From a virus, in UHGV virus genome UHGV-0074814: a DNA stretch of 52,958 nt; one strand, written 5' to 3'. Numbering within the stretch: the first letter of the stretch is position 1; each line of letters begins with the position of its first letter. The position numbers and the translations under genes were made by a program. Shown in pieces: positions 4,221 through 52,958 of the stretch. The notes beneath the pieces were generated by a model that was not told the origin of the DNA, ran no database searches, and was given only the letters and a program-made list of their open reading frames with translations.

Positions 4221-4221
4221 T

Positions 4222-5026: not shown

Positions 5027-5034
5027 AGATATAC

Positions 5035-5691
5035 CTATACACCGATTGCTACCCAAAAACAGGACCTTTCATATTTGACAATTTCTCCCTGAGATATACC
5101 GCCAACAATTATATAGAACTGTGATTTGGTGATATCAGAACAGTTCGCAATGCCCATTGCAGATATACCCGCCACCGACGTTGTATGTGGTACAGCCAAC
5201 AGCGCAAGTGAACGACTTGGGAATGTTACCGGGTAAGTCACCGTATAGTTTGATGCTCCACTGACTATACCCCACTGAATAATCAGACCTGAAGGGAGTT
5301 TTTGAAAACCCGTTGATGAAAGTGAACTGGCAAACGCCGCCATATCCGGAATTTGGTTTTGCTCGTTACCCACATTTCGTTTTGCCGCTTCTCTCAAACC
5401 AAGGTTTTGAAGAGCCGTTTTCACCGTGCCGTCCGATTTGATATCGCCAAACGGATTTTTGCGACTTAACAGCAGCGCACGAAGCGCGGTAAGCAGCTGG
5501 TCATGCCGCCCCTTCTCCAGGCTGGCACCGGATGCCTCCACCACGCTGCAGAGCTCTTCCTGCAACATGTCAAAGTAGTCATCATCCAGATCGGTGGCAG
5601 GCGTGCCGGTCTGGGGGTTACCACGGGTAAAACCGTTCTTACCCGCGCCGAACTTATCCTTCTGCGCGGTTTTCGTGTCTATACGATGCAT
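5035..5691 (-). CDS. tail fibre protein (Mu S / e14 Stf-like) with constant N-terminus and invertible C-terminus
   Basis: Position after baseplate genes; crossover site at 5389-5414 lies inside the gene; followed by Tfa. Confidence 0.55.
5389..5414. repeat. invertase crossover site, right arm, inside tail fibre gene
   Basis: ttctctcaaaccaaggttttgaagag is an inverted near-copy of 3859-3884. Confidence 0.5.
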
Positions 5692-6279: not shown

Positions 6280-7328
6280 GAAATCGTCCCCAGTACCGCC
6301 AGTTCATTTTTTGCAATGGAGATATTGTCTGCCGGTGCAAGCAACTGATGGCTGTATTCCCCGTTCGCACCGGAAATCGCCTCACTGATACGCGATACCT
6401 TCAGTTCTCCCTGCGGATAACCATCACGCAGCAGGAACGAACGCAACTCCGCGGTGATGGCAGCCCGTATTTCCGGTGTGTCCGGCGTCACACGGATATG
6501 AAAATCCACCGTATGTGCCACCGGCCTGAACACATACAAATCAGAGCCTGCCACCGGGGCCAGTGGCCCGATATGTTGTCTTGCTGCCGTTTCCGTTGAT
6601 TCTTCCGGAATGGGATTAATCAGGTCACTGCTGGCAATCATCACACCGACAGTCCCCGTTCCCATCCAGTGACGGTATGTCCATGCGCGGGTAATGCCGG
6701 GCACTTCTTTAGCCCAGACGACATAGTCCCTGTCAGCCCCGCCCTGCGGCGTCCAGTAATACCGCTCAATGACGCGGGCTCGCCACGTTTCCAGCTCTTC
6801 AGTATCAAATCCACCTGTCAGGGTATCTGCCACGCCGGAAGACGGCAGACCATTAACCGGCGTGACCAGGATTAATGACGTACCGTCGTCAGCGTTACCG
6901 ACCGCGCCTGCACTTGAGCAGGCGATCGGCACGCGCAGGACACCACCGGAGCTGGTTGCATCGGCAGTTGCCGTGTACTGAACCAGGTCATCGCGCTGAA
7001 TAACACTCCCGGCGGTCACCTTCAGGCCATCGCTGACACCTTCCCAGCGCATATACCCGCTGGCAGCAGTGGCCCCCTTGCGCGGACACCGTTTCATCGC
7101 AGCATGTCGCGCCAGCCAGGACTCATCGCACAGGTCAGGCAGCATGTTCATCGCCAGATAATCGATGTACCCGTAAACCGTATGCAGCGCCGCCGCATAC
7201 ACCTTTGCCCGCACGTCTTCATCCATGCGCCGGAGCGTGTCGCTGACGTCCAGCCTGGCGAATAAATCGTTACGGAGCATACTGATATTTTCTGCCAGCG
7301 TCGGGCGCTGAAATTCACTGTCCGCCAT
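6270..7328 (-). CDS. baseplate J-like protein (Mu gp47-like)
   Basis: 352 aa; order and size in Mu-like baseplate block. Confidence 0.6.
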
Positions 7329-25423: not shown

Positions 25424-26599
25424 ATGGATATAACTTGTTTAGAATGTGGCAATGTTCTTGACGACCCAACTGTAGCTTGCGATAAATGCGGTGCCACGCC
25501 TCATGTTGTAGTGCTGGGCAAACAATCGTACTTTCCTATTGGTGCTGTAACAGCAAATCTTGAAAAAAATGATTCAAGAGCATTTGATTATCGATTAGGT
25601 GAAGTTTGGGATCTAAAAAATGAAGTCACATCTGAATTCATAACCAGAATTGAGAAAAAATTTAGCCGAAAAAACAAATTTCATAACTTCCTAGACTCAG
25701 ATCACAACCCTTCATCCATTCCTACGATCCTAAAAAAATACATTAATAAAAATAATGAATTCATTGATTTATCTAGAGCTATAATAGAGAAGCTTAAACA
25801 TAATGCTAATAACGAATCGAGAGTTGCCCAACTTCAGGGGGGGAGCGTTGTTTTCATCCACTATAAGTCTACCGAACCAGAGGATTTGGGGAAACTTCTA
25901 ATCGTAATGGTTGATAAACAAAGCGCCTATGACTTTGATTCGGATAAGTTGACCCCAACAAGATTAAATCCAATTAATACCGATGCCTTACGGCAGGCTG
26001 CGATGTTCGATTTAACTTTATTCGAAGCCAGTTATCCAGAAAACAAGGGTGACTCATATGTACATTTCTTGCAAGGTAAATCTAAAAGCGATTTTTTCAA
26101 AGACTCATTAGGTTGCCGACATGATTCGGACAATAAAAGAAGCATTCAGCAATTATTCAGTGCTATAGATATTTTTGCTAGTAAAAACTCACTCGGTCGT
26201 GTACTGCGTGATACTATTGACAATGAAGTTAAATCCTTACTGGAAAAAAAATCAAAAGATAAACACGGAAATAAGTCCGTTAAGATAGAGGATATTTCAA
26301 AAATAATTGACTCATGCCTGACTGATTCACACAAATGTAAGGGAACGTTTGTCGATTTTGTTAATCTTAATGGTTTCCAGATTGACCCTCAATTTGAACC
26401 AACTCCTAAAGCAGCTGAAAGCGCGCTTACAATTGAAGTGGCAGATAACGACAATAATTTTAAGTTGAAAATAATGCGTGGAGCTATTGGAGACGAAAAG
26501 TCAAATAAGCCTGTAATTCTCACTGACAACAAATGCGAAATTGTGATAAAATTGAGTCAGGCAAATTATGATGAACTCAAAAGATATAGAGACAGCTAA
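25424..26599 (+). CDS. zinc-ribbon protein with NdpA/YejK-like (NA37 nucleoid-associated) domain; candidate defence component A
   Basis: N-terminal CLECG-N10-CDKCG zinc ribbon; central GGSVVFIHY...YVHFLQGKSKSDFFKDSLGC resembles YejK GGIVLFCHY...[23 protein letters not shown]; AT-rich relative to flanks. Confidence 0.5.
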   Translation: MDITCLECGNVLDDPTVACDKCGATPHVVVLGKQSYFPIGAVTANLEKNDSRAFDYRLGEVWDLKNEVTSEFITRIEKKFSRKNKFHNFLDSDHNPSSIPTILKKYINKNNEFIDLSRAIIEKLKHNANNESRVAQLQGGSVVFIHYKSTEPEDLGKLLIVMVDKQSAYDFDSDKLTPTRLNPINTDALRQAAMFDLTLFEASYPENKGDSYVHFLQGKSKSDFFKDSLGCRHDSDNKRSIQQLFSAIDIFASKNSLGRVLRDTIDNEVKSLLEKKSKDKHGNKSVKIEDISKIIDSCLTDSHKCKGTFVDFVNLNGFQIDPQFEPTPKAAESALTIEVADNDNNFKLKIMRGAIGDEKSNKPVILTDNKCEIVIKLSQANYDELKRYRDS

Positions 26600-26601
26600 T
26601 A

Positions 26602-27816
26602 ATGACAATTGCTGATGACTTATCAAGATTAGCGCAGATTATTAACGGAGCCTCAAGCAGAGTTGAGGGCTACTACACTGTCATAAGTCTTGAAGAAAGC
26701 ATTGTTATTGTAAATAGTTCTGAAATAATTAGACTGTTACAATCTATAGGTTATAAAAAGGCAACAACCTGCATCGAAAATAATGAAATTTGGCTAGATC
26801 GCCAAGCTTCATCTTGGGATGATGCTATAATTTATGAGAATGTTGAGTCTTTTTGGTCTAGAGTAAACACCCAAAACGCTCTTCCGAAAAATTATATCAT
26901 CGGAACGCCGTTAATACTCCCTACTTCTAAGAATGAAAGCATCGAAAAAATCCATATTTTCTTTATGTGGAAAGATATCCTTTCATTAATTTCTGATCAT
27001 CATAACAGTGACTGCTCTGTCTTATTTTTCACCAATGAAGACAAAAGTTATACAGTCGAACTCACGCATTTTTTACAATATAGCGAGATTAATCGCTTAT
27101 CGAACTCGTCTCTTAAATATGAAATTATAAAGGAGCTTCTCGACACAATAAAAATCAATGATTTACACAAAAGCGAGCGCAAGCTCGTTATACGCTCAGC
27201 CATAAACGAAGTATTTAAAGCAAATGGTACGTTCAATTTCTTTGACTTGCTTAACTCTACTGAACTCGTCAGGAAAAAATATGATGAACTATATGAGATT
27301 TACACAAAGAGGTTTTCTGTAAATAAAATTCTTAACGAACTCGATGAGAAAAATCTTGAGTTCACGAGTAAAATTAACGAATTCATATCATCTAATCAGA
27401 CAAAAGCATTGACTATTCCCGGTGCATTAATAGCAGCTGGTGGCTTAGTGAAGGCTAATGAAACAACCGAAGCAATATTGATTATCGCAGGACTTTGGAT
27501 GATAAAAAAAGTCAATTACATTTCTATTGAGATATTCAATGAAACATTCGACAACTTACGTTCTCGAGTGGAGTCCGCTTTCGATAAGTATTTAAAGTTT
27601 GAAGAAAATAAAGAAATCAAAGATAATGCAGATAGTATTAAGAGTAGCATTACAGGTTTGATTGATAAAGCTAAAAAAAGGATGAGAACTGTTAAATATC
27701 TCGCATCAGCCATGTTTTATGGAGGCCTTATTTACGTTGGATATAAACAGTTCCCAGTCTTTTTTGAAAAATCGGCAGTAAATCTATTTTATTTTTTATG
27801 CCATACTATAAGCTAA
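26602..27816 (+). CDS. membrane protein with two C-terminal TM helices; candidate defence component B (effector?)
   Basis: Starts 3 nt after the stop of the upstream gene; hydrophobic segments ALTIPGALIAAGGLV...AILIIAGLWMI and YLASAMFYGGLIYVGY. Confidence 0.5.
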   Translation: MTIADDLSRLAQIINGASSRVEGYYTVISLEESIVIVNSSEIIRLLQSIGYKKATTCIENNEIWLDRQASSWDDAIIYENVESFWSRVNTQNALPKNYIIGTPLILPTSKNESIEKIHIFFMWKDILSLISDHHNSDCSVLFFTNEDKSYTVELTHFLQYSEINRLSNSSLKYEIIKELLDTIKINDLHKSERKLVIRSAINEVFKANGTFNFFDLLNSTELVRKKYDELYEIYTKRFSVNKILNELDEKNLEFTSKINEFISSNQTKALTIPGALIAAGGLVKANETTEAILIIAGLWMIKKVNYISIEIFNETFDNLRSRVESAFDKYLKFEENKEIKDNADSIKSSITGLIDKAKKRMRTVKYLASAMFYGGLIYVGYKQFPVFFEKSAVNLFYFLCHTIS

Positions 27817-39403: not shown

Positions 39404-40519
39404 TTAAATTAAATCAAATAGCCCATGTTCATCTATAGCCTTTGAACTAATTAAGTTCGCGGCTTCTATGTCATTGTCACTTGCCTCAGAAATAAGGAAA
39501 AATGAATCAACATGATTTTGCAAAATAATTTCCTTATACTTCTTGAGCCATTGTAATTTACCTGTAGTGAACAATACTTTACGCGGTAGCAAAATACGGC
39601 TAAAAACTGATGGAAGATACTCACTTCTATTAAATGGAATAAAAGGGTCGCCTAAAGAAAGAATAGTTAGACGATTAAATTCACCGTGCGAATTCAATTT
39701 TTCAGCTGATTTGGCTATACCACTTGGTAAAAAAACACCTGTCTTGATACCGTTGCGTAAAGCAACAACAGCCATCATTTTATCAAAGGCAGTACCTCCA
39801 AATAATAAGGAATATCCTTTTTTAACAGAAAGATCAATAGTATCAAGAACAACTTGTTTTTCTATATCACTTGGTGACGTGCTCGAAATTATCGAAAGAT
39901 CAAAATCAGTAAATAACTGCCCAGTATAATAAAGATTTTTGCCGGTGAAAGTTGACAACTTTAAAGGAAACATTTTATCATCATGCTTAATTTCAGATAC
40001 ATTAAGATCTGTTAAGGATGGATAGTTAAAGTTTGGTGAGGCTTTTCCGTGTTTATTATTTTTTGATGCCTGCGGACTAAAAACTAGAATTTCATTTTTA
40101 TTATTACACAGGTAATCCTGTATCATTTTTTTTACAATATCCCAATCAAGACCACCGTGACCACAACCTAAAGCTGGCAGGGTGATTGTTTTTCCATGTT
40201 TATTATCCAAATATTTCGAGAGCCAATGCAGTCCTTTTTCGATATATTCGTACTTAGACTTATTTCTCCAATGATCCTTGGTGGGAAAGTTTATGATTTC
40301 TATTTCCTTACCATACGTATCATTACCTTTCCAAACAGCTGGTCTTCCTGGAGATATTTCTCCTTTTTTACACAGCAATACGTATTCATTATACATTTCA
40401 GGAAACTTATTCTTAAAAGCAAAAGCAACCCCTGCCCCCATTACACCAACACAATTAACTGTATTAATTCTAATGTCAGCAGCATAATCGAAAAAATCAC
40501 CATCAACATATCTAATCAT
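39404..40519 (-). CDS. macro-domain protein (DarG/TARG1-like) with C-terminal Rossmann-like domain; candidate antitoxin
   Basis: GDFFDYAADIRINTVNCVGVMGAGVAFAFKNKFPEMY and ALGCGHGGLDW macro motifs; start set at ATG with SD AAGGAGG (ORF track extends to 40645); AT-rich. Confidence 0.55.
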   Translation of the reverse strand: MIRYVDGDFFDYAADIRINTVNCVGVMGAGVAFAFKNKFPEMYNEYVLLCKKGEISPGRPAVWKGNDTYGKEIEIINFPTKDHWRNKSKYEYIEKGLHWLSKYLDNKHGKTITLPALGCGHGGLDWDIVKKMIQDYLCNNKNEILVFSPQASKNNKHGKASPNFNYPSLTDLNVSEIKHDDKMFPLKLSTFTGKNLYYTGQLFTDFDLSIISSTSPSDIEKQVVLDTIDLSVKKGYSLLFGGTAFDKMMAVVALRNGIKTGVFLPSGIAKSAEKLNSHGEFNRLTILSLGDPFIPFNRSEYLPSVFSRILLPRKVLFTTGKLQWLKKYKEIILQNHVDSFFLISEASDNDIEAANLISSKAIDEHGLFDLI

Positions 40520-40991
40520 AAAACCTCCTTTGGTCAGAGTATACATCCTTATTTCTGGCTCTTCAATTCTATTGTCAAAAACTTTTACAAAGTCTGCATC
40601 AGTAAAACTGATGGCGCATTTTAAAATTAAAATCAATATGTCCATATCAAACGTTATATTTGTTATTTTTTGTATTTATTATTCATATCCATCATGTGCT
40701 ATTAAATCGCCCAAAAGAACATAATAAATTATGTGCACCACTTTCTTCTTATTGAATTTTGGATTACATTACGATCTAAATTAGATCTTTTGCCAATATC
40801 ATAAACATATGCAGCAAACGTTGCAACAAGCTGTTCTCATTCTAACAGTTAGTAGAATATAAACTCTGTAATTAGCACACTGAATTCCCTTCATCTATGA
40901 GTTACAACATCCTTTAAGTGAATAGTATTGTTAGTTTAAATCTATTAATATCATTCATAAAACTATTTTATATAGTTAAAGTCATTATAAA

Positions 40992-41015
40992 TCCATCTGA
41001 ATATATACAGATGGA
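40992..41015. promoter_or_regulatory. perfect palindrome TCCATCTG-N8-CAGATGGA in intergenic spacer (candidate operator)
   Basis: 8-bp inverted arms with 8-bp AT spacer, read directly. Confidence 0.3.
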
Positions 41016-41226
41016 TTCTGCCAATAGTCTTTGCAGGTGAAGTGCATGTTATATATTTTTTAGGGAATATATTTTCTAATTATTTCTCAGATAAAAATTT
41101 GCAGAACGAAATTACTTTACATAATACCGAATGTTACAGATTATTTTATTGCATATAAGCATTGAACTAACCACTATCACAGTGACTATGTTAATCATAA
41201 AATCTGCATCAAATTCAAAAAGCTCC

Positions 41227-42573
41227 TCATAAACTGTTCCCCTGCAATCTTTGGAGAACTTCATCCCGGAGATCATCGATCCCGTCAGAAACCTGAGCTA
41301 ACCAAACTTGACTTAATGAGCCAATATCAGCCTTACTTAGGGCTACTAACATATTGATATCTTCAGAAGATGTAACTATATCGAACAACTGATTTTTATT
41401 CCTCCCTTTAGCTACTATTTCCCCCAATAAATCATCATACGTAACTAACATCATTATTTTTCTAACTAGATCGGTTTGTATGACTGGCAGATCTTCTGTC
41501 AAAATTCGTTGTAGCATCGCAAGTGACTTCCTAGGATGCTCTCCATCTGCCTCATGCATGTAATTATTATTCCAACGTGTTTTAGGCCCTTTGCCTATAT
41601 CATGCAAATAAGCGGCCAACTCCAAAACTTCCTGATGAATAGAGTCTAATTGATAAAACTCTGGTGAATTAACTACAAGACTAGCCACTCGTCGACTATG
41701 AGAGCCAACATCTTCATTATGAGGCCCGTAGCTCGTCCCCAATCCATCGATATCTTCAAGCTCTTGGATGGAGGAGAAATTACCACGAATTGCACTTAGA
41801 GCATCACTAATACTTTGAAATTTTGGCCTCGTTTCTCGTTGAAATGAAGTTACATATTCAATAGCTTCATCAAAAAGCATTTTTAACACTACCGGTCCCG
41901 TGACTAAGGATGAGGACCAGTTTCCAGGTTGATAATAATAATGTTGAAAATCACCCTCAACAATATTTGGTGGAACAATACCTTTGTTCTGGAAAATACT
42001 CCTCACAATATCAGACATAGAACGATTCCATGTAATTATCTGATTTATTTCGCTTAAAGAGACATGATCTGGCAGCAAAAGTTCTGCCATCTTTTTATGC
42101 CTCTGAGTCTCGTCAGCATAACCCCATGCATTATTATCTATGGTAGCCCAATCTAATACATCAAGCTGGTCAGCTTGAGTATTACCAGAATAAAAGTTCG
42201 GTGGATTAACTGTATTTGCGGAAGCATCTGTAAAATATGACCCATTCCTTGTTTCGAGTGATAATATAGAAACTGAAAGATAGATAATAAATTGCTGATC
42301 TACATTTTTTTTATGAAGAACAGACAATTGCATGGGCGTTTTTTTTGCAAAATAAAAAGGAACATAATCATGAACACAACGACCATTCGTATTAGGCACC
42401 TGCATCACTGCCCTACGCCCCTGTATTCCTTCATCAGCAACATTCACATGTGATATACGACGTGCAATTTTCTGATTAGTCGAAAACAGCCCAGTTTCAA
42501 TTATTGATTCAAGATTATCTACTGACGTAAAGTGATATGCATTTCGGTGTCTATGGTGAACAGGAACTGTCAT
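41227..42573 (-). CDS. DarT-like (DUF4433) ADP-ribosyltransferase domain fused to HD phosphohydrolase domain; candidate toxin
   Basis: N-terminal YHFTSVDNLESIIETGL, HDYVPFYF and YFTDASA resemble DarT; C-terminal HSRRVASLVV...LAAYLHDIGK is an HD motif; SD GGGGGA; AT-rich. Confidence 0.5.
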   Translation of the reverse strand: MTVPVHHRHRNAYHFTSVDNLESIIETGLFSTNQKIARRISHVNVADEGIQGRRAVMQVPNTNGRCVHDYVPFYFAKKTPMQLSVLHKKNVDQQFIIYLSVSILSLETRNGSYFTDASANTVNPPNFYSGNTQADQLDVLDWATIDNNAWGYADETQRHKKMAELLLPDHVSLSEINQIITWNRSMSDIVRSIFQNKGIVPPNIVEGDFQHYYYQPGNWSSSLVTGPVVLKMLFDEAIEYVTSFQRETRPKFQSISDALSAIRGNFSSIQELEDIDGLGTSYGPHNEDVGSHSRRVASLVVNSPEFYQLDSIHQEVLELAAYLHDIGKGPKTRWNNNYMHEADGEHPRKSLAMLQRILTEDLPVIQTDLVRKIMMLVTYDDLLGEIVAKGRNKNQLFDIVTSSEDINMLVALSKADIGSLSQVWLAQVSDGIDDLRDEVLQRLQGNSL

Positions 42574-42928
42574 GTATCCCCCATGAAAAACTATAAAAAT
42601 TTAGGTAGTGTGCTTTATATTATTACAGTAATTGTAAATTACCGATATAGGATATCAACCTTCCTGTGATCTAGGTCACTCAGGATGAGCAACTTCCTAT
42701 TGATTAGGATTCAAAATGTTTGAAATGTGCGCTTACAGAACCACAGGCCACTTTGAGCGAAGAACAGACCTAAATATAAACGAGGGTTAATCAGCAATAA
42801 TTATAATAAACTGAGGTATGCCTAATTGGAACTTGACAATATAACTACCATCTCTCCCTAAACAACTAGGAGTTTTGATAACTTATTTTGATAAAATTTT
42901 GATAACCGTTAGCAGACTAACAAAAAAC

Positions 42929-42951
42929 AACGGGAGCGTTACACTCCCGTT
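42929..42951 (-). terminator. rho-independent terminator hairpin downstream of icd 3' copy 2
   Basis: Stem aacgggag/ctcccgtt, 7-nt loop; on minus strand followed by GTTTTTTGTT. Confidence 0.45.
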
Positions 42952-42974
42952 AATAGATTTAACAAATCACGATA

Positions 42975-43139
42975 TTACATATTCTTGATGATCGCATCAC
43001 CAAATTCTGAACATTTCAGCAGTTTAGCACCTTCCATCAGACGTTCGAAGTCATAGGTTACGGTCTTCGCGTTGATTGCGCCTTCCATACCTTTAACAAT
43101 CAGGTCTGCGGCTTCAGTCCAACCCATATGGCGCAGCAG
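42975..43139 (-). pseudogene. icd: icd 3'-terminal fragment (copy 2, attL-side)
   Basis: Translation [54 protein letters not shown]-stop; ~9 mismatches vs copy 1 over 165 bp. Confidence 0.8.
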
Positions 43140-43598
43140 TATATAAAAATTATGTATTCAACTCGCTGATATTTAATCATAAATATTATTTTCTTGTCTT
43201 TGTATTAGCCAAAATCAACTTTATTCAACCGTTTGATTTCATTGACGTTCGTTTTTATTTTGGGGAAAGATTTTCTCTACCATTTATATCAAAATTACAA
43301 GTCTACATTTTATTAACATCTCAATACATGTGTGGCCTTGCAAGCCATTGCGAGGCCTTATGTGTCTCAGTTTTGTCCCGCCTTGTATTACGACTTGCAT
43401 AGCCAATGAAGATAAACGTGACGACAAACAAAGCAGCTGTCTTCTTTTCTTTCACACTTTCCCCACTCAGCAGCATGCATACCTTCTACTATAACTGTAG
43501 TGAATGTCTATTATGAGCGAACTGCGGACATCGTGGAGACAACATGCTGCTGGGTGCGGATATCCCATGGCACGTCATATCGCTCGCCGTATTACTTG

Positions 43599-44369
43599 TT
43601 ATTTTTTTGAAACGAGAAGTTGATACAATTCCTTCAGGGATAAGGCTAATAACTCATTCTTCCTGATGAGATCTTTATCAGCGTCTATACCCTCTGCGCA
43701 TGATTCATTTAAATAGTTCAGTGTTTCCTGATCATCATCCAAGCATTCATAGCTGCCTGAATAAAATTCATCGCAACTTGCTTTGTTATTTTTGTCAATG
43801 TAACCAATGCATTGAATCACGCCTTTAACAACTTTAGCAGCAGAAAAAACAAAGTAACTGCAGTCATTTATATAGCGTTCAATATCAAAAATCATATAAA
43901 AATAGTGCATAGAGTGTTTTTCAATTTCAAACTCACTTGAAATCATAGCTATTTCACATTCAAGGTCTTTCAGACCATCTAACATTATGGAAAGTTTACA
44001 TTGTTTTTCTTGCACAGTTTCATACTTAAATGACTCTCTCCCCTTTGCCCTGACATTTATTCTTTCTTCAATTGCATAAATATAAGCAGGATATACACGC
44101 GACCACACTTGGTTTATTTTTAGGATTAACCGGCCTCTTTTCAGCCTTTCTTTTGTAGCTATAAATTCTGCATATAGCGCAGCATCCTCTTCGCACCATA
44201 CATCAACTTTTCGTTTATAACCCAACTTTAATTCTTTCCCTACGCATTCAGGAAACAAAGGATCAAAGTCCTTTAAGTATTCAAACTCACTTAGATAGAA
44301 TCCTGTCTCATAACGATTAAATAATTTCCTAAACTCTTTCCCACTTAAGGTTTTCATTGTATCAATCAC
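43599..44369 (-). CDS. hypothetical AT-rich cargo protein (256 aa)
   Basis: Clean ORF with strongly AT-biased codon usage; no motif recognised. Confidence 0.4.
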   Translation of the reverse strand: MIDTMKTLSGKEFRKLFNRYETGFYLSEFEYLKDFDPLFPECVGKELKLGYKRKVDVWCEEDAALYAEFIATKERLKRGRLILKINQVWSRVYPAYIYAIEERINVRAKGRESFKYETVQEKQCKLSIMLDGLKDLECEIAMISSEFEIEKHSMHYFYMIFDIERYINDCSYFVFSAAKVVKGVIQCIGYIDKNNKASCDEFYSGSYECLDDDQETLNYLNESCAEGIDADKDLIRKNELLALSLKELYQLLVSKK

Positions 44370-44963
44370 TCTGTTTTCATAAAAGCAAAGTCAACAAGAT
44401 AAAACAATAAAAACTCTTACACAACCAGCTGATGTTTTTAAAATAGAGGATAATATAAGACAAGCATAACCTCGTTCACTTCAATGCTACTCCTATCGTT
44501 CTTTTGCGTCACAGAGCGCCTGCCGGACAACTGCATCATAGACCAAACGGAACTGCTTCCGTCGATTAATCAGATGGCAGCGCATAAACACGCTCAACAA
44601 CCCGTTTGACTGCTTCAATTTTAAGCTCTTCGGAATAACGCTTACCGTGTAAGTCTCCCTGCAAAACGAGCTATCAACTTTTAAGGAGTCTCTGGCCCCC
44701 CTGCTTCCGCTCCTGGCACACAGCAGCCCTAGAGACAGTGGAGTAAAGTCATGGAGGCTCGGTGGGGGGAGGTGCAAATCCTCCCATACAAAAAATACGA
44801 AAATCAGTAACGGCTAGAAATCATTCAATACATGCACTCTCGAAATTGCATCAGCCAACCGCAAAACGTTATTTCAAAGCCTACTAGCTGCCTTACTTTT
44901 TTCCTCAATAACGCGTCGCCAGCAGGAAACAACCTAATCCCTGTTTTGGGCCTCAAAGCTGCT

Positions 44964-44982
44964 AATGATAATCATTTTCATT
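44964..44982 (+). promoter_or_regulatory. Fur box upstream of sitA
   Basis: AATGATAATCATTTTCATT matches Fur consensus GATAATGATAATCATTATC at about 15 of 19 positions. Confidence 0.5.
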
Positions 44983-45001
44983 TTGTATAGGCTGTGCTAT
45001 A

Positions 45002-45023
45002 AAACATAGCCGTTGCTATGTTT
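45002..45023 (+). promoter_or_regulatory. MntR operator palindrome upstream of sitA
   Basis: AAACATAGC-cgtt-GCTATGTTT perfect inverted repeat, the known MntR box pattern. Confidence 0.55.
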
Positions 45024-45055
45024 GTTCTAATTTTGCTCACTATAGGTACTAAATT

Positions 45056-45970
45056 ATGCACTCGATAAAAAAAGTAACCATGCTCTTGGGGGGGCTCGCA
45101 CTCACCTGCTCGATCGCATTTCAGGCAAGTGCAACTGAAAAATTCAAGGTCATTACAACATTTACCATCATCGCGGATATGGCCAAAAACGTGGCGGGAG
45201 ATGCTGCAGAAGTCTCATCCATAACCAAGCCTGGTGCAGAAATTCATGAGTATCAGCCTACCCCTGGCGATATTAAACGTGCGCAGGGGGCACAACTGAT
45301 TCTCGCCAATGGTATGAATCTGGAATTGTGGTTCCAACGCTTTTACCAGCATCTCAATGGGGTTCCAGAAGTAATTGTCTCTTCGGGTGTGACGCCTGTA
45401 GGGATCACCGAAGGACCCTATGAGGGCAAACCTAACCCCCATGCATGGATGTCGCCAGATAATGCTCTGATTTACGTCGATAATATTCGTGATGCGTTGA
45501 TAAAATACGATCCGGCAAATGCACAAACCTACCAACGCAATGCCGATACTTATAAAGCCAAGATTACCCAAACCCTTGCCCCCCTGCGTAAGCAGATTAC
45601 GGAACTCCCTGAGAATCAGCGATGGATGGTCACCAGTGAAGGGGCTTTTTCTTATCTCGCACGCGATTTGGGGCTAAAAGAGCTTTATCTGTGGCCGATT
45701 AATGCCGATCAACAAGGAACACCGCAGCAGGTACGTAAGGTTGTTGATATAGTTAAGAAAAATCATATCCCGGCAGTCTTTAGCGAGAGTACGATTTCCG
45801 ATAAACCAGCGCGTCAGGTTGCGCGTGAAACCGGCGCACACTACGGCGGTGTGCTCTATGTCGATTCCCTGAGCACAGAAAACGGCCCGGTACCGACGTA
45901 TATCGACCTTCTTAAGGTTACTACCAGTACGCTGGTACAGGGAATTAAAGCTGGGAAAAGGGAGAAATAA
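45056..45970 (+). CDS. sitA: Mn/Fe ABC transporter periplasmic binding protein SitA
   Basis: Signal peptide, 304 aa, first gene of four-gene ABC operon with Fur and MntR boxes. Confidence 0.8.
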
Positions 45971-46797
45971 TGATGCAATCTGCAGGCATTGTCGTTAATG
46001 ATGTTACTGTCACCTGGCGTAACGGGCACACAGCACTGCGCGATGCATCCTTCACAGTACCAAGTGGATCTATTGCCGCTCTGGTTGGGGTAAACGGTTC
46101 CGGAAAATCGACGTTGTTTAAAGCGATTATGGGATTTGTGCGTCTGACCAGCGGAAAGATATCTGTTCTGGGTATTCCCACGCGACAGGCGTTACAGAAA
46201 AACCTGGTTGCCTACGTCCCTCAGTCAGAAGATGTTGACTGGTCATTTCCTGTACTGGTGGAAGATGTGGTGATGATGGGCCGCTATGGGCATATGGGTA
46301 TGTTGCGTATCGCCAAAAAGAGGGATCGTCAAATTGTCACCGATGCGCTGGAACGTGTCGATATGGTGAATTTTCGCCATCGACAAATCGGCGAGCTTTC
46401 CGGTGGACAAAAGAAACGCGTCTTTCTGGCGAGAGCGATTGCACAGCAGGGTGATGTGATCCTGCTGGATGAACCTTTTACTGGCGTTGATGTGAAAACC
46501 GAAGCCAAAATCATCAGCCTGTTGAGGGAGTTACGCGCGGAAGGCAAAACGATGCTTGTCTCAACACACAATCTCGGATCCGTCACGACATTTTGCGATT
46601 ATACGGTCATGGTCAAAGGCACCGTCCTGGCAAGCGGGCCGACAGACACCACTTTTACAGCCGAGAACCTAGAGCTGGCTTTTAGCGGCGTACTGCGCCA
46701 TGTCACACTTAACGGCTCGGAAGAAAGCATTATTACTGACGATGAACGCCCTTTTGTGGCTCATCGACCGTCAGCGGTGCAGAGGGAAGAAAGATGA
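45970..46797 (+). CDS. sitB: Mn/Fe ABC transporter ATP-binding protein SitB
   Basis: Walker [10 protein letters not shown], signature LSGGQKKR, Walker B ILLDEP. Confidence 0.85.
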
Positions 46798-47651
46798 ACG
46801 TGCTACTGGAACCCTTCAGCTATGAATATATGCTCAATGCGATGTGGGTCTCGGCGATGGTCGGCGGTCTCTGCGCTTTCCTGTCATGCTATCTGATGCT
46901 AAAAGGCTGGTCGCTGATTGGCGATGCGTTGTCGCACTCTATTGTCCCGGGTGTTGCGGGGGCATATATGCTGGGGCTTCCGTTTTCTCTGGGAGCCTTC
47001 TTTTCCGGCGGACTGGCTGCGGGCAGCATGCTGTTTCTTAACCAACGCACCCGCTTAAAAGAAGATGCCATCATCGGTCTGATCTTCTCGTCCTTTTTTG
47101 GCCTGGGGCTGTTTATGGTGTCATTGAACCCGACATCTGTGAACATTCAGACCATCGTCCTGGGCAATATTCTGGCAATCGATCCGGCGGATATCCTGCA
47201 ACTCACTATCATTGGCATTCTCTCGATCATCGTGCTTTTTTTCAAATGGAAAGATCTTATGGTGACCTTTTTCGACGAGAATCACGCCCGTGCTATTGGA
47301 TTGCATCCGGGCAGATTAAAACTCCTCTTCTTCACCCTGCTGTCGGTTTCGACCGTTGCGGCGCTGCAAACGGTTGGTGCCTTTCTGGTGATCTGTCTGG
47401 TGGTGACTCCCGGTGCAACAGCATGGTTGTTAACCGATCGTTTTCCCCGCCTGCTCATGATTGCTGTAACTATTGGCAGTGTAACCAGTTTCCTCGGCGC
47501 GTGGGTCAGTTACTTTCTGGACGGCGCGACAGGTGGAATCATCGTGGTGGCGCAGACACTGCTGTTTCTTTTAGCATTTGTCTTTGCGCCCACCCATGGG
47601 CTTTTGGCAAATCGTCGGCGTGCGCATAAGGCGCTGGAGGATCGCTCATGA
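46794..47651 (+). CDS. sitC: Mn/Fe ABC transporter permease SitC
   Basis: 285 aa polytopic membrane protein, overlapping starts in operon. Confidence 0.8.
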
Positions 47652-48505
47652 TGGCATTATTACTGGAGCCACTGCAGTTCACCTTTATGAGTCACGCACT
47701 GCTGATTTCACTGGTAGTTTCCATACCCTGTGCGCTGCTGTCGGTCTTTCTGGTCCTGAAAGGTTGGGCACTGATGGGTGACGCGATGAGTCATGCGGTT
47801 TTTCCTGGCATCGTGCTTGCCTGGATTCTGGGGTTACCTTTGGCTACAGGGGCATTCGTCGCCGGAGTATTCTGCGCGGTGGCGACGGGATACCTGAAAG
47901 ACAACAGCCGAATCAAGCAAGATACAGTGATGGGGATTGTTTTTTCTGGCATGTTTGCCGCAGGTCTGATCTTGTATATTGCAGTCAAACCAGACGTACA
48001 TCTTGACCATATTCTTTTCGGCGACATGCTCGGGATAACCATCGGCGATATAATCCAGACGATGATTATTGCCGGGCTGGTTACACTTGTTATTAGCGTA
48101 AAATGGCGGGATTTTTTGCTGTTCAGCTTTGATTATCAACAGGCGCAGGTAAGCGGTTTGCATACGAGATGGCTGCATTATGGGCTGCTGTGCATGGTCT
48201 CTCTGACCATTGTGGCGACGCTGAAAGCGGTAGGTATCATTCTCTCCATTTCTCTGCTCATTGCGCCTGGCGCCATTGCGGTACTCCTGACACAACGCTT
48301 TCATATTGCGCTCCTACTGGCGACTGGCATATCGGTAATAGTGTCAATGACTGGTGTCTGGTTGTCCTTTTTTATCGACAGCGCACCAGCTCCGACGATT
48401 GTCGTCTTATTCGCGGTTTTGTTCATCATGACGTTTGCCGTTACCAGCATCAACGCACGCAAAAAGGGAAACTCCCATACACAGGATCTGTTATCACCCA
48501 ATTAG
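47648..48505 (+). CDS. sitD: Mn/Fe ABC transporter permease SitD
   Basis: 285 aa polytopic membrane protein paralogous to SitC. Confidence 0.8.
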   Translation: MMALLLEPLQFTFMSHALLISLVVSIPCALLSVFLVLKGWALMGDAMSHAVFPGIVLAWILGLPLATGAFVAGVFCAVATGYLKDNSRIKQDTVMGIVFSGMFAAGLILYIAVKPDVHLDHILFGDMLGITIGDIIQTMIIAGLVTLVISVKWRDFLLFSFDYQQAQVSGLHTRWLHYGLLCMVSLTIVATLKAVGIILSISLLIAPGAIAVLLTQRFHIALLLATGISVIVSMTGVWLSFFIDSAPAPTIVVLFAVLFIMTFAVTSINARKKGNSHTQDLLSPN

Positions 48506-48596
48506 CACAACATCCGAGGACAGCAACACCCGATACTTTTTCCTGGCTTCCAGCAACGGGGTTTCTTCCTCCGTTGCATATACAGCTCACCTTTTT

Positions 48597-48890
48597 TCAC
48601 CCACGATTAACCAACAGCCAGACCAGCAGACACGCCACCACCGGCACAGCAAAATCCATCAGGCTTGCCACATCCCAAGCTCGCGGATCAAAACCGCCCC
48701 ACCACGGCATATTCATTCGCTTGCCATGCCCGAACATTTCAATCCAGCGATATTCTGCCTGGGTATGTTCACGCGCAATGAAGAACGTACAACCGGCTAT
48801 CGCTCCGTAAGCCCAGTTTCCGGTAAAAAGACCAACCAGTATCTGCGCAGCCACAGCACAAAGTGCATGAAGTAAGGGGCTTATATCCAT
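48597..48890 (-). CDS. hypothetical membrane protein
   Basis: 97 aa with two hydrophobic segments. Confidence 0.3.
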   Translation of the reverse strand: MDISPLLHALCAVAAQILVGLFTGNWAYGAIAGCTFFIAREHTQAEYRWIEMFGHGKRMNMPWWGGFDPRAWDVASLMDFAVPVVACLLVWLLVNRG

Positions 48891-48902
48891 TATTTCCTCC
48901 TT

Positions 48903-49181
48903 TCAGCTCCATTCCCGAAGCGGTGTTTCCAGCTCCACGACATAATCAGAGAATACAGAAACATCAAACAAGTCATCAAGAATGCGAATGTTGACAAAAT
49001 AACCATCATTCCGGATACAGACAGGTTCTCCCTCTTCTGTTACCCCTGTTTCTGTGTAGGTGAAACCAATTTCATCAACTAACAGTTTATTCTGGAGGTC
49101 TTCATCTTCCGCCCAGCCAAGAGATGACAGGAAGGCCTTAAACTGCAGTTTGTCATGAAACTTCAAAGTTAAATCTTTCAT
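48903..49181 (-). CDS. hypothetical protein translationally coupled to side tail fibre gene
   Basis: 92 aa; start overlaps Stf stop. Confidence 0.3.
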   Translation of the reverse strand: MKDLTLKFHDKLQFKAFLSSLGWAEDEDLQNKLLVDEIGFTYTETGVTEEGEPVCIRNDGYFVNIRILDDLFDVSVFSDYVVELETPLREWS

Positions 49182-51244
49182 ACGACCTCTTTTAATTGCC
49201 TGTCATTTAATTCTTTATGCCATATGCGGAAATTGCGAATATGGCCAAACAGATGTCGTTCTCCAGTATTCGTCTGCCCTCCAAATCGGATATTTTTATC
49301 AGCGGTCACGCCATTATATTCACAATAAACTTCATTAACCGCTTTACCATTTGTCACCACATGAAAGTGACCATCAGCTTTTGCAATACATCCAAATGTG
49401 GTTTTCTCTGCAAATACATCTGTCGCTGCGCTATTAACATACGAGCCTGAAGGGTTTGACAGACTCATATATAACTTACCACTACCTCTGTTGATTGCTG
49501 CAATTGCTGATTGCCCGGTATTGGCTGCTGCTATATCCCACACGCGGGGTGCGGCGTTTGGTGCAATATCCCAGTTTTTATGAATCTCAAGTAAAAAAGT
49601 AAATGGTAACTTATAAAGATTATTTCTGGTGGGGATACTAACCAAATCACTGGCTCTTGTCGTTGCGCTGCCTCCTGAAATAATAAATGATGATACACAC
49701 GGCCCATTCTCTACTTGTGGGGTGGCAAGATAAATATAGTCACCAGATACTGTTGCCCCACCCTGCCCAGGAGAATACTGTATCTGAGAGCCTATTTTTA
49801 ACTCACCATCAATTGCCTGAATCGTTGCCTCTGCAAAAATCCAGCCCGTGGTCTTATCCTTCCTGACTCGTGCCGTAATTCTGCCGGCAGCACCACCTGT
49901 CATACTAATTTCAAGCGTTTGCGTATCAATGTACGCATCGCCAAGAAAAGTTGTTGCACTACCATCATACTTATCAAACCGTATACGTAACCTTACCTGT
50001 CGTTCTGTTTTAAAACGGCATGAGGTTGTCACGTACTTGTTATCGCCTGAGACATCAACTGACTTTGTTGCAGCAATTGATGCCATATTAATAGCCGAAG
50101 TTTGCCCAACCAGAGAATCGTTGCAGACAAACTTTCCATAAGTAAAACCAAAACTATCCGTCCCGGTTTCGGGCACATCCATGTTTGATGACTTCCCCCA
50201 GCTGGCTGGACTTTCCGAATTGAGCATGTAGTTCGTTCTTTGTCCCTCAATAAGCAGGCCATCACACTCAAATCGCGGCTCATTAATTTCCGCCGTTTTC
50301 AGTTCGCCAGATTTGTTGATATATGTTGCCGTTGATGCGCGACTGAAATTAACCTGTTTATCACTGGCGACCTGAACCACATCGTCACCAATAGCTATTT
50401 TTTTATAGCCCGGAGAAAAACCCGCAATCATATCCAGTGAATCGTTAAACGGTATCCACACATCAGGCAGCGGCGGCACTATATTCGCACAGGGCTCTGC
50501 AGTCACTTCCGCTGCGGCTTCTGCGCGGTCTGCCGCCTTTTCAGCTCGTGTCGCTGCCGACAGAGCCTCATCCTTTTTCTGCCCGGCCTTTGTTGCGTCT
50601 GCTGCGGCCTCCCGCGCTTTTGTGGTGGCGACTCCGGCATTTTCAGCGGCTGACTCTGCATTACGGCGGGAAGCCTCTTCACTGTCTGCGGAGGCTTCTT
50701 CTGACGCACGGGCATTTGTCTCTGAACGTTCTGCCGCTGTTGCTGCGTTTTGTGCGGCTGTTTTTGAAGAAGCTGCCGCTTTCGCGCTGTTACCTGCATT
50801 CGTCTCTGATGTTTTCGCCGCGTTCCTGGACGATGCCGCTGCTGTTTCTGATTTCTTTGCTGCCGCTGCGCTCTGAGAGGCGGCTTCAGCGTTGCGTGCC
50901 GCCTCTTCCACCATCTTTTCAAAACGATACAGTGCCTCCGGACAAACATCATCTTCTGTTGCAGCGCCCAGAAAATCATTCAATGTCCCCGGCTTAGAAT
51001 CCTCATACACGGTGATGGTCCCGGCATGTGAAGGCGGAAAACCTTCAACCAGCAGGGCGACGCTGTACTGGCCATACTCAACATCCATGCTGTAACGTCC
51101 GGCTTCATCCGGATTTTCTGAGGCCACCGTGTTCACCACAACTGTGGTGCTGTTACGTTTTGCTTTGAGCTGAATGGTGCAGTTCTGTATCGGTTTTCCT
51201 GCACCGTCTTTCAGCACACCTGAAATCTGTACTGCCATATTCAC
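49178..51244 (-). CDS. side tail fibre protein (lambda Stf-like N-terminus, Ala-rich stalk, distinct C-terminal domain)
   Basis: N-terminus MAVQISGVLKDGAGKPIQNCTIQLKAKRNSTTVVVNTV...GRYSMDVEYGQYSV nearly identical to lambda Stf as recalled. Confidence 0.7.
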   Translation of the reverse strand: MNMAVQISGVLKDGAGKPIQNCTIQLKAKRNSTTVVVNTVASENPDEAGRYSMDVEYGQYSVALLVEGFPPSHAGTITVYEDSKPGTLNDFLGAATEDDVCPEALYRFEKMVEEAARNAEAASQSAAAAKKSETAAASSRNAAKTSETNAGNSAKAAASSKTAAQNAATAAERSETNARASEEASADSEEASRRNAESAAENAGVATTKAREAAADATKAGQKKDEALSAATRAEKAADRAEAAAEVTAEPCANIVPPLPDVWIPFNDSLDMIAGFSPGYKKIAIGDDVVQVASDKQVNFSRASTATYINKSGELKTAEINEPRFECDGLLIEGQRTNYMLNSESPASWGKSSNMDVPETGTDSFGFTYGKFVCNDSLVGQTSAINMASIAATKSVDVSGDNKYVTTSCRFKTERQVRLRIRFDKYDGSATTFLGDAYIDTQTLEISMTGGAAGRITARVRKDKTTGWIFAEATIQAIDGELKIGSQIQYSPGQGGATVSGDYIYLATPQVENGPCVSSFIISGGSATTRASDLVSIPTRNNLYKLPFTFLLEIHKNWDIAPNAAPRVWDIAAANTGQSAIAAINRGSGKLYMSLSNPSGSYVNSAATDVFAEKTTFGCIAKADGHFHVVTNGKAVNEVYCEYNGVTADKNIRFGGQTNTGERHLFGHIRNFRIWHKELNDRQLKEVV

Positions 51245-51296
51245 TCCACAAATAAAAAAGGCACCATTTCTGGTGCCCGAATTTGGGTTTTAAAAT

Positions 51297-52958
51297 TCAA
51301 CTGATACTGATGCCGGCTGTTGATTTCTTCATCACGACAACAAGAAGGTCGCTGATACTGGTCGTTGGCGTCCAGTTATTTGCACCATATGAAGAAACAT
51401 TGAAAGTCAGGGTGACATGGCCGTGTCCGGCAGGCATATCAATGACTGATGAAAATACCCTGCTGACATCCGTCGCGGGTTGCTGAAAGATTTCCTGTCC
51501 GTTCTTCAGCACCTGCAGCTTACAGGTTGAATACCAGTATGACTGTTGGTTGTTGCTGTTGAAGTTTTCATGCTTACCACCGCGAAACAGAACGGGGGGG
51601 ACGACTATCTGACGGTCAAAAGCCTGGTCATCGTACACAGTGACCGTTATTGTACCGCTGGCATAACTGCCATTTCTCGGAAAGGCTTTTCCCACCGTTT
51701 TGACAATATCACCTTCAATCTGGTTAGCTGACAGTTTTCCCAGAATCCGACAGTTCTGGTTAATCGTGACATTATTGAGCGTCCCGGAGTTCGCATTCAC
51801 GTTACCGCTGATATCCGCATTTCTCGCAGAAAGTCGACCATCAGGTGTCAGTGAAAACGTTGGGGGATTGCCACCGCTGGTAATGGTGGGAGCCGTCAGA
51901 TATTTCAGGAACACTTCGTTCATGAATATCTGATCGCCCTGACCAACAAACATCGGCTTTGTGTTGCCATTCGCAGGATTAACCATCGCAATCCTGTCCG
52001 CCGCCAGCAGCACCTGACTCTGCATGCCGTCAGGGGTGTTCTCAATACCGGCACCAATACCCGCGATATAAAGGCGTCCGTCCTGCATCTGCTGCAGCTT
52101 CACAGCCCACATGCTGTTCAGGTTATTATTTGTATCAACCTGAACCTTCTGTATCTGCTGAATTGCCGCACTCTGGTCTTCCAGTTTCTTATTGACGGTC
52201 TGCGTGATTTCATTGCTGACATCCGTAATGGACGTCCTGATTTCAGCCAGGTCAGGCGCAAGCTGACCGTTATCAATCTGCGTCCACAGCTCCTGAGCCA
52301 GATGGCTTTTCCCTATCTCGCCTTTGAAAAAATCCAGATAGCCGGATGCATCATCACTCGGCTGGCCAACAGCCTCCACAAATGCCGATTTGCCAACGGT
52401 GTTCACACTGCGAATGTAAAAATAATAATCATGGCCCGGTTTGATATTGATACTGGCGGCTATCCAGTACAGCGCCGTACCAAGATAACGCGCGCTGGCT
52501 TCAACCTGCCTGATATCCGCAATCCGCTTTTCCGAGAACCAGAACTCAAACTGTACCGTCGGATCATAAACGGCAAGATGCGGCGTTGCGGTTATCTGAA
52601 AATAGCCCGGCGTCAGCTCAATCCTCGACGGTGCTGCCGGTGCGGCAATCCGGAACGATACCGACGCCGGATCGCCCTGCTGCCCCCACGCATTTACCGC
52701 CCGGACTGTCAGCCTGTAGTTCCCCAGCGCCAGTTGCCTGAAGCGGTATGTGGTTTCCGTCGTCCGGGCCGTGCTGACCAGCCGCTCACTGCCGTCATCC
52801 GCTGTTACGGTCAGACGGAGCAGGAAGCTCACGCCCTTCACCACCTTCGGCGTGTCCCAGCGCGCCAGCACCTGATATTCCCCGCTGTCTGCGGTGACTT
52901 CGGCGGTCAGGTGCTGCACCGCTGGCGGCGTGACACCATTCACCGTGCCGCTCTGGTC
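51297..52958 (-). CDS. tail tip host-specificity protein J-like, C-terminal part (5' end lies beyond window)
   Basis: Open reading frame continues to window edge; position immediately upstream of Stf. Confidence 0.6.

Follow-up and report, generated by a model that had tools for sequence, protein, structure and literature searches.

SitABCD systems are ABC transporters for which uptake of both Mn2+ and Fe2+ has been reported in APEC, Shigella and Salmonella; their affinities for the two metals, and their virulence phenotypes, are given in a review (PMC3852070). Iron- and manganese-dependent repression, acting through fur and mntR, is stated for the sitABCD operons of Salmonella and Shigella (PMC3852070, PMC8970401). 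MntR–Mn represses SitABCD, and Yersinia, which is without MntR, uses Fur alone (PMC3852070). The same genes are known from temperate phages. Sit is termed a ‘moron’ of lambda-like phages from the infant gut and of Perceval, a prophage of the AIEC strain LF82 (PMC6969025, PMC9928086). Among the infant-gut lambda phages that were sequenced, 70% (not all) are reported to carry sitABCD, always with a fur box upstream (PMC6969025), and sit is reported among the morons expressed from the Perceval prophage in LF82 transcriptomes (PMC9928086). The closest described relative of the locus examined here is classical Escherichia phage 21 (PMC9119081), to which we return below.

In this report, we describe a sit locus in a stretch of viral DNA of 52,958 nucleotides (UHGV virus genome UHGV-0074814), referred to throughout as ‘the window’. 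We conclude, with a probability of roughly 0.9, that these genes are a sitABCD moron, a self-contained block of passenger genes, belonging to a phage-21-like lambdoid prophage inserted at the icd gene of Escherichia coli. The arrangement is real and already described, in classical phage 21 and in many gut coliphages, and we claim no new biology beyond the published phage 21, the infant-gut lambda phages and prophage Perceval. Coordinates of the features discussed are collected in Table 1.

Table 1. Features of the sit locus and its surroundings (positions in the window; ORF, open reading frame)
Feature	Position	Strand	Remarks
e14-like prophage	about 849-43138		carries GmrSD and DarTG defence genes
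Terminator, hairpin and T-run	42928-42952	-	just downstream of the icd 3' fragment; 11-bp stem with 6 GC pairs, then TTTTTTG
icd 3' fragment	42977-43138	-	~164 nt, last ~53 codons and stop; junction of the two prophages
Phage-21-like prophage	from 43139 rightwards		owner of sit; mostly beyond the window
Small ORF, 51 aa	43321-43476	-	counterpart of phage 21 putative membrane protein CPT_21_32
Protein of unknown function, 256 aa	43599-44369	-	low-GC stretch between sit and the prophage end; phage 21 CPT_21_31
Possible scrap of IS3-family transposase N-terminus, 32-aa ORF	44566-44664	-	~200 bp to the left of the cassette
sit cassette	44859-48532	+	sole stretch common to the ColV-plasmid copy
Fur box GCTAATGATAATCATTTTC	44961-44979	+	17/19 consensus positions
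Putative -35 hexamer TTTTCA	44975-44980	+	overlapped by the Fur box; our reading of the sequence, the evidence being cross-genus conservation
Core repeat ATAGG-ctgt-GCTAT	44987-45003	+	upstream of the MntR box; overlaps the putative extended -10
Putative extended -10 TGcTATAAA	44995-45003	+	our reading, the evidence for it being cross-genus conservation
MntR operator AAACATAGC-cgtt-GCTATGTTT	45002-45023	+	perfect inverted repeat
sitA	45056-45970	+	304 aa; signal peptide; predicted periplasmic Mn2+/Fe2+-binding protein
sitB	45970-46797	+	ABC ATPase, 275 aa
sitC	46794-47651	+	permease, 285 aa; matches metal ABC permease families; multiple hydrophobic segments
sitD	47648-48505	+	permease, 285 aa
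Hairpin GCAACGG...CCGTTGC	48553-48577		91-bp gap where sitD (+) and late-strand phage ORFs (-) converge
Two small phage ORFs, 97 aa and 92 aa	48597-49181	-	downstream of the side tail fibre gene; phage 21 CPT_21_24, CPT_21_23
Side tail fibre protein, 688 aa	49178-51244	-	Pfam phage_tail_N, E = 3e-67; PHROG tail-fibre families
Tail tip protein J, C-terminal part	51297-52958	-	gene continues past the window end

The transporter

The four sit genes are intact, co-oriented ORFs, tightly coupled in that successive stops and starts overlap or abut. In many E. coli chromosomes, the match to 44400-48900 is 100% identical and carries the annotations sitA, sitB, sitC and sitD; the complete four-gene ABC transporter of the initial annotation is borne out in full. 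SitB passes the NCBIfam equivalog model NF011630 (‘manganese/iron ABC transporter ATP-binding protein’), with 592.8 bits for a cut-off of 393, and its catalytic motifs are intact: Walker A at residue 40, LSGGQ at 143 and Walker B (VILLDE) at 163. SitA matches Pfam ZnuA (E = 9e-86), as expected of a ZnuA/TroA-family substrate-binding protein, and aligns end-to-end with the solved YfeA of Yersinia pestis (E = 4e-125); its residues H64, H129, E195 and D270 fall opposite identical residues of YfeA 5uxs. The YfeA residues at these four positions are, we take it, the metal ligands (His-His-Glu-Asp). PHROGs, a collection of phage protein families, includes families for SitA and for SitC/SitD. Judged by architecture, families and motifs, the operon is predicted to encode an Mn2+/Fe2+ ABC importer of the SitABCD/YfeABCD type.

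Operators and promoter

Both of the metal-responsive operators reported earlier upstream of sitA are present and intact. The Fur box, with two mismatches to the 19-bp consensus, is the sole site in the window with three or fewer (chance expectation 0.03). The MntR palindrome has no mismatches, is likewise unique in the window (chance expectation 0.03), and has arms identical to those of the box upstream of mntH in E. coli K-12, AAACATAGC-cttt-GCTATGTTT. Fur box, extended -10 and MntR core keep their order and spacing upstream of sitA in other genera, namely Salmonella, Citrobacter, Erwinia, Pantoea, Phytobacter, Shimwellia and Atlantibacter. When sit promoters are aligned, the ATAGC/GCTA columns of the MntR box are invariant across genera, and so, in nine Enterobacterales promoters, are the GCTAT columns of the core repeat that precedes it. 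This repeat may be a -10 element, a second MntR site, or both. The proposed promoter was not called by a consensus promoter scan, because its -10 hexamer ends in A.

Borders of the cassette and its neighbours

The borders of the cassette are set by comparison with the ColV plasmid pAPEC-O2-ColV: the two sequences are 97.3% identical over 3,675 nt (blastn), and homology ends abruptly on both sides. The shared stretch begins 197 bp upstream of sitA, and so includes the promoter and the operators, and ends 27 bp beyond the sitD stop. Its GC content is 49.7%, versus 38% in the flanking sequence at 43139-44858. The initial annotation had drawn the locus more tightly, from 44964, inside the Fur box, to 48505, the stop codon of sitD.

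To the left lie three ORFs. The 51-aa ORF was placed by mapping phage 21 positions 6422-6577 through the gap-free alignment described below. The 256-aa protein is 100% identical to translations in phage 21 and in strain PSUO2, and matches phrog_20520 (‘unknown function’) with E = 1e-177; searches of Pfam, NCBIfam, PADLOC and PDB sequences returned no match, and a single-sequence AlphaFold model was discarded (mean pLDDT 32.6). The 32-aa ORF resembles Pfam HTH_Tnp_1 (E = 0.0045; 17.6 bits, under the cut-off of 24.1 bits). With this Pfam match sub-threshold only, we dropped the ORF as evidence of a capture mechanism. Similarity to IS3 at the same spot was called ‘unconvincing’ by the annotators of phage 21.

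To the right, the two small ORFs have matches in phrog_1443 and phrog_1361, families of unknown function, and their identity to the phage 21 counterparts is 97-100%. The side tail fibre protein shares 98.5% identity with the ‘side tail fiber’ of phage 21, and the J fragment covers profile positions 612-1163 of 1163 of NCBIfam lambda_TipJ (E = 2e-293). The sit operon, which has operators of its own and a plausible promoter, runs on the strand opposite these late genes. A terminator scan found no clear intrinsic terminator after sitD; the hairpin that follows the gene has no adjacent T-run. Folding of 48500-48600 gives -20.4 kcal/mol (z = -2.6), and the hairpin may be a candidate bidirectional stop. 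Rfam and tRNA scans found nothing across the whole window.

Two tandem prophages at icd

At the icd site, the window holds two prophages one after the other: on the left an e14-like element, and on the right a phage-21-like element, of which about 9.8 kb is visible before the window stops at 52958, inside gene J. The 3' end of icd is duplicated at the prophage boundary, as for phage-21-like integration at icd. One copy, about 1.9 kb from sitA, separates the two elements; a second, at about 578-848, is more diverged (86% identity) and translates to the C-terminus of Icd. In the annotation of phage 21, the piece corresponding to the first copy is an ICDH-like pseudogene beside attP. The terminator next to it lies in att-region sequence common to e14-like and phage-21-like elements, and is annotated in phage 21 too. 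The junction span, 42300-43900, reached at least 80% coverage in no complete E. coli genome of the collection.

These observations refine one part of the earlier description, which set sit between the side tail fibre gene and ‘the prophage end’. The position was right: the cassette is flanked by the tail-fibre arm on one side and by the icd 3' fragment on the other, collinear with phage 21. The ‘end’ is the junction between the e14-like and the phage-21-like prophage. One long run of phage genes could suggest a single prophage, and the e14-like element does bear cargo of its own beside its att site (DarTG), but that sit belongs to this large left-hand element is a reading we reject: in strain S87, the match to the window runs to 43138, where the same e14-like prophage ends, and the sequence continues straight into intact icd without sit; here, the icd 3' fragment separates the elements and everything right of 43139 matches phage 21.

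Sit as phage cargo

That sit is carried by a phage is supported by collinearity. From 42921 to 52958, the window aligns with the virion genome of phage 21 (OL657228.1) as one gap-free segment of 10,038 nt at 98.8% identity, and the order of genes is that of phage 21: J, side tail fibre, two small ORFs, sitDCBA, the 256-aa protein, icd', and attP/int. With phage 21 matched on both flanks, the cassette lies inside phage DNA, in a region that phage 21 packages in its virions. Sit is also carried by 27 deposited phage genome records, at 95-100% identity. Phage-mediated carriage, as the initial annotation proposed, is therefore supported; it is also already established, by the genome of phage 21 (PMC9119081) and by PMC6969025 and PMC9928086.

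A more serious alternative is that sit has become a fixed chromosomal island, the phage-21-like element being defective and carriage historical rather than current. We regard this as a real, if minority, possibility. The phage-21-like copy could be a decayed remnant, because the window ends in J and the head, lysis, immunity and integrase genes lie beyond it, leaving some 9.8 kb of the sit-bearing element in view. Decay is plain to see in strain PSUO2, where a sit prophage at the same site has a frameshifted integrase gene (intE), a frameshifted replication gene and IS insertions, and the ‘PAI sit’ of Shigella and E. coli is described as variable in size, rearranged and unstable (review PMC7545054). 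Set against this, all of the phage-21-like ORFs in view (the C-terminus of J, the side tail fibre, the small ORFs and the 256-aa ORF) are full-length and 97-100% identical to those of phage 21, which is viable, and functional sit-carrying phages are common.

It is far less credible that sit belongs to no prophage and forms an island of its own that merely abuts phage tail genes. The cassette does occur on ColV-type plasmids without phage flanks, and the left junction differs in many chromosomal copies, being shared by 741 of about 2,400 sit-positive genomes; but the locus does not fall outside the prophage boundaries, since both of its flanks are collinear with packaged phage 21, with icd' beside attP on the left and J on the right. 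To count copies in a phage context, we used queries that span the junctions. A count by coverage of at least 80% of 44400-48900 was dropped because the plasmid-shared cassette alone makes up 81.6% of that query.

How the cassette might work

The model that follows takes transport specificity, repression by Fur and MntR, expression in the lysogen and fitness benefit from the literature, and takes gene content, intactness, operator sequences, position in phage DNA and the prophage boundary from the analysis above. By analogy with related importers, SitA would bind Mn2+ or Fe2+ in the periplasm and pass the ion to a membrane channel formed by SitC and SitD, with import powered by the SitB ATPase. 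The operon would be read from its own promoter towards the phage late genes, which occupy the opposite strand. Fur–Fe2+ would occupy the box over the -35 region, and MntR–Mn2+ the palindrome just past the -10 region; from the placement of the two sites, each probably represses by occlusion. With two host repressors in control, sit would be on only when iron and manganese are both short in the lysogen, as might be the case in host tissue or during oxidative stress. The block is placed between the tail-fibre genes and attP, in what would be a non-essential arm, and so would be packaged and transferred with the phage.

A further mode of expression can be imagined, though we consider it a long shot. 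On the circular, vegetative map of phage 21, xis-int is followed, across attP, by sitABCD, which shares its strand with the early-leftward (pL-type) operon. Because of this shared strand, N-antiterminated read-through might conceivably transcribe sit during lytic growth, which would make sit both a lysogenic-conversion gene controlled by the Fur and MntR of the host and an auxiliary metabolic gene. If this were so, lytic expression would boost the supply of Mn and Fe during phage replication.

Virulence-linked metal uptake, associated with extraintestinal and invasive E. coli and with Shigella, thus has a temperate phage among its vehicles, besides ColV plasmids, and the cassette arrives pre-wired to the iron and manganese sensors of the recipient. 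For genome annotation and virulence-gene calls, the sit genes here are prophage-borne, not plasmid-borne.

Comparison with known systems

Two of the systems compared are the chromosomal loci of Salmonella enterica (SitABCD, in SPI-1) and Yersinia pestis (YfeABCD). These have the same four-gene architecture and encode the same transporter family; SitA here is 74% identical to a protein of S. enterica subsp. arizonae, and the Salmonella promoter has its elements in the same order, Fur box, -10, MntR box. The Salmonella and Yersinia loci lack the flanking phage genes of the present locus. ColV and ColBM plasmids (e.g. pAPEC-O2-ColV, NC_007675.1) carry this 3.67-kb cassette as well: the promoter, the Fur box, an MntR box identical to ours and all four genes, with the 97.3% identity given above. 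The flanks are wholly different—a toxin-antitoxin pair, IS elements and aerobactin genes on the plasmid—and the vehicle is conjugative.

Closer still are the infant-gut lambda-like phages and Perceval, whose sit genes are 99.8-100% identical to this copy; LF82 also shares the icd'/256-aa left arm, at 97.4% identity. The sections of PMC6969025 and PMC9928086 drawn on here mention the Fur box and do not discuss the MntR palindrome, whereas both operators were found in our sequence. The other morons of these phages (bor, emrE, etc.) belong to regions beyond the window.

Escherichia phage 21 (genus Jouyvirus) is the nearest match. Over the visible 10 kb, to which this comparison is limited (the integrase, immunity and head regions of the present element lie outside the window), the two share every feature in the same order: icd' and its terminator, the membrane ORF, the 256-aa ORF, sitABCD with its operators, the two small ORFs, the side tail fibre gene and J. 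They also share the same target, icd. They differ in that identity is 98.8% rather than 100%, and in that the element described here is integrated, in tandem with an e14-like prophage.

Organization of the tandem prophages

The window comprises two prophages, integrated in tandem at icd. Its first 848 nt correspond to the ycgX side of icd in E. coli PSUO2, displaced icd 3' fragment included, and are followed by an e14-like prophage (approximately 849–43138) bracketed by diverged copies of the icd 3' end (578–848 and 42886–43153; 86% identical). This prophage encodes a GmrSD-type restriction enzyme, tail, head, lysis and early genes and, up to 39193, xisE/intE. In E. coli S87, an element 99.4% identical to it extends to exactly 43138 and is followed by intact icd; the DNA beyond the terminal 164 nt of icd (42977–43138) differs in the window, and there a phage-21-like prophage begins directly. 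The order at the junction is DarTG-bearing e14-like prophage, icd fragment, sit phage. None of 5,426 complete E. coli genomes covers at least 80% of 42300–43900, which spans this exact junction; a comparable tandem, with other cargo, is present in strains MS1657 and VTB96929v.

From 42921 to 52958 the window aligns collinearly with the packaged DNA of the classical lambdoid phage 21 (OL657228.1), over a single segment of 10,038 nt that has no gaps and is 98.8% identical. In the same orientation, phage 21 carries xis, int, attP arm sites, a terminator, an 'ICDH-like' pseudogene (the last 53 aa), genes for a small membrane protein and a hypothetical protein, sitA–D, two small ORFs, the side tail fibre gene and J; the window shares every feature between the terminator and J, both included. 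The sit operon therefore lies 1.9 kb inside the left end of the phage-21-like prophage, in the presumably non-essential arm between side tail fibre and attP. The initial annotation had described sitABCD as phage cargo between the side tail fibre gene and the prophage end. The observation is confirmed and the interpretation supported, since the flanks match a packaged phage genome and the locus falls within a prophage rather than outside it; as a refinement, the window holds two prophages, of which the phage-21-like one owns sit.

The operon occupies the strand opposite to the late genes; sitD and the late-strand ORFs point towards each other across a gap of 91 bp, which contains a hairpin. All phage ORFs visible in the window, which stops inside J, are full-length. 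A sit-bearing element at icd can be decayed, as in PSUO2 (locus L086, 3679000–3708000), where the integrase and one replication gene are frameshifted and IS3 and IS110 elements disrupt the prophage. This prophage of an APEC strain also encodes iss (serum survival), a large inverse autotransporter and a TonB-family gene. Beside attP in phage 21 and its relatives, sit is accompanied by the gene for a 256-aa protein (Table), for which Pfam, NCBIfam, PADLOC and PDB sequences gave no match and single-sequence AlphaFold gave only a low-confidence model (pLDDT 32.6).

Table. Coordinates of selected genes and predicted regulatory sites
Feature	Position	Strand	Length	Remarks
GmrSD-type type IV (modification-dependent) restriction enzyme	1690–3579	+		PADLOC mREase_IV full-length match, E = 0
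Two convergent tail-fibre sets	3831–5691			Gp53-like_C C-terminus and assembly ORFs in each
Two-gene insert	25424–27816	+		Low GC (~35%)
DarG	39404–40645	−	413 aa	Macro domain
DarT	41227–42573	−	448 aa	Extra HD domain
phrog_20520 protein	43599–44369	−	256 aa	Function not assigned; low GC
IS3-like ORF	44566–44664	−	32 aa	Transposase N-terminus (HTH domain) match, sub-threshold, E = 0.0045
Predicted Fur box	44961–44979			GCTAATGATAATCATTTTC
Putative weak −35	44975–44980			TTTTCA
Second core	44987–45000			ATAGG-ctgt-GCTAT
Putative extended −10	44995–45003			TGcTATAAA
Predicted MntR-type inverted repeat	45002–45023			AAACATAGC-N4-GCTATGTTT
sitA	45056–45970	+	304 aa
sitB	45970–46797	+	275 aa
sitC	46794–47651	+	285 aa
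sitD	47648–48505	+	285 aa

The transporter and its control region

The four sit ORFs are arranged head to tail on one strand, and the operon is complete, as originally proposed: 44400–48900 is 100% identical to chromosomal DNA of many E. coli strains, in which the matching genes bear the names sitA, sitB, sitC and sitD and are annotated as encoding an iron/manganese ABC transporter. The encoded proteins look functional from their sequences. Against the NCBIfam equivalog model for the manganese/iron ABC ATPase, SitB scores 592.8 bits, above the cut-off of 393, and it has Walker A, LSGGQ and Walker B motifs. SitA has an N-terminal signal sequence and belongs to the ZnuA family of binding proteins (Pfam E = 9e-86); YfeA of Yersinia pestis, whose structure is solved, aligns along its length (E = 4e-125), with the same residues at the positions of H64, H129, E195 and D270. 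In YfeA these residues are the metal ligands. SitC and SitD both contain several hydrophobic segments and fall into metal ABC permease families.

The two operators predicted upstream of sitA are also borne out at the sequence level. The Fur box agrees with the 19-bp consensus at 17 positions, and is the sole site with three or fewer mismatches in the 53 kb scanned (0.03 expected by chance). The MntR-type repeat is perfect and occurs once (0.03 expected); both arms are those of the box upstream of mntH in E. coli K-12, and the spacer differs by one base. We compared the regions upstream of sitA in loci from other genera. Salmonella, Citrobacter, Erwinia, Pantoea, Phytobacter, Shimwellia and Atlantibacter have the same order of elements, with a Fur-like box ~90–105 bp, and an ATAGC-N4-GCTAT core 43–82 bp, 5' of the sitA ATG. 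In an alignment of nine Enterobacterales sit promoters, the GCTAT, ATAGC and GCTA columns are invariant, GCTAT being part of a second core directly 5' of the MntR palindrome. This second core could be another MntR half-operator or simply an extended −10 element, a putative example of which overlaps it; a putative weak −35 lies within the Fur box. A consensus promoter scan did not call the proposed −35/−10 pair, because the −10 hexamer ends in A. In Salmonella and Shigella, MntR-Mn represses SitABCD, and Fur also acts on sit and mntH (reviewed in PMC3852070; primary paper PMC8970401).

Cassette borders

Only 44859–48532 is common to the window and plasmid pAPEC-O2-ColV (97.3% identity). This cassette runs from 197 bp 5' of sitA, both operators included, to 27 bp beyond sitD; homology stops abruptly at both ends, and the plasmid flanks are unrelated to those in the window. 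Its GC content is 49.7%, versus 38% in the phage DNA on its left. About 200 bp outside the left edge lies the 32-aa IS3-like ORF, which may, as a hint, mark a scar of the event that captured sit.

Other features of the e14-like prophage

The GmrSD-type gene sits at the far end of the prophage, in the mcrA slot of K-12 e14. Between intE and the att site is a DarT/DarG pair (toxin–antitoxin or anti-phage; 34% GC across 39404–42573) with an unusually long gap of ~580 bp; other strains have a P-loop ATPase (Sll1717 family) or a TPR protein in this place. The convergent tail-fibre sets resemble an invertible segment that sets host range; none of the genes close by was identified as an invertase. 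The two-gene insert lies on the strand opposite to its neighbours; one product, of 391 aa, has an NA37 nucleoid-associated domain, and the other, of 404 aa, has no family match in Pfam or PADLOC.

Distribution and comparison with known systems

Sit sequences occur, on chromosomes and plasmids, in about 2,400–2,770 of the 5,426 complete E. coli genomes; 741 have the phage-type left junction and 1,187 the right one (sitD with the small phage ORFs). The operon is also present, at 95–100% identity, in 27 phage genome records, among them phage 21, Perceval, a series of lambda phages from the infant gut and phages with hosts listed as ECOR13 or E. coli C. Dedicated PHROGs families exist for SitA and for SitC/SitD. 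Among 80 loci with SitA relatives from species-representative genomes (L005–L084; none Escherichia), the closest SitA is from Phytobacter (86%), followed by Izhakiella and Buttiauxella (82%) and Shimwellia (80%); Salmonella arizonae reaches only 74%, and Rhizobium-group alphaproteobacteria 70–76%. The phage flanking genes were found at none of these 80.

Prophage-borne sitABCD is an already known kind of element. Mathieu et al. report it on 70% of lambda phages sequenced from infant-gut E. coli cultures, with a fur box upstream every time, and count it as a moron (PMC6969025); Misson et al. likewise describe it among the expressed morons of the Perceval prophage of strain LF82 (PMC9928086). 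A 'PAI sit' of Shigella and E. coli has been reviewed (PMC7545054). The passages on phage-borne sit in PMC6969025 and PMC9928086 name only the Fur box, so relative to these the perfect MntR palindrome, which has the arms of the host mntH site, adds something minor, as does this particular junction of tandem prophages.
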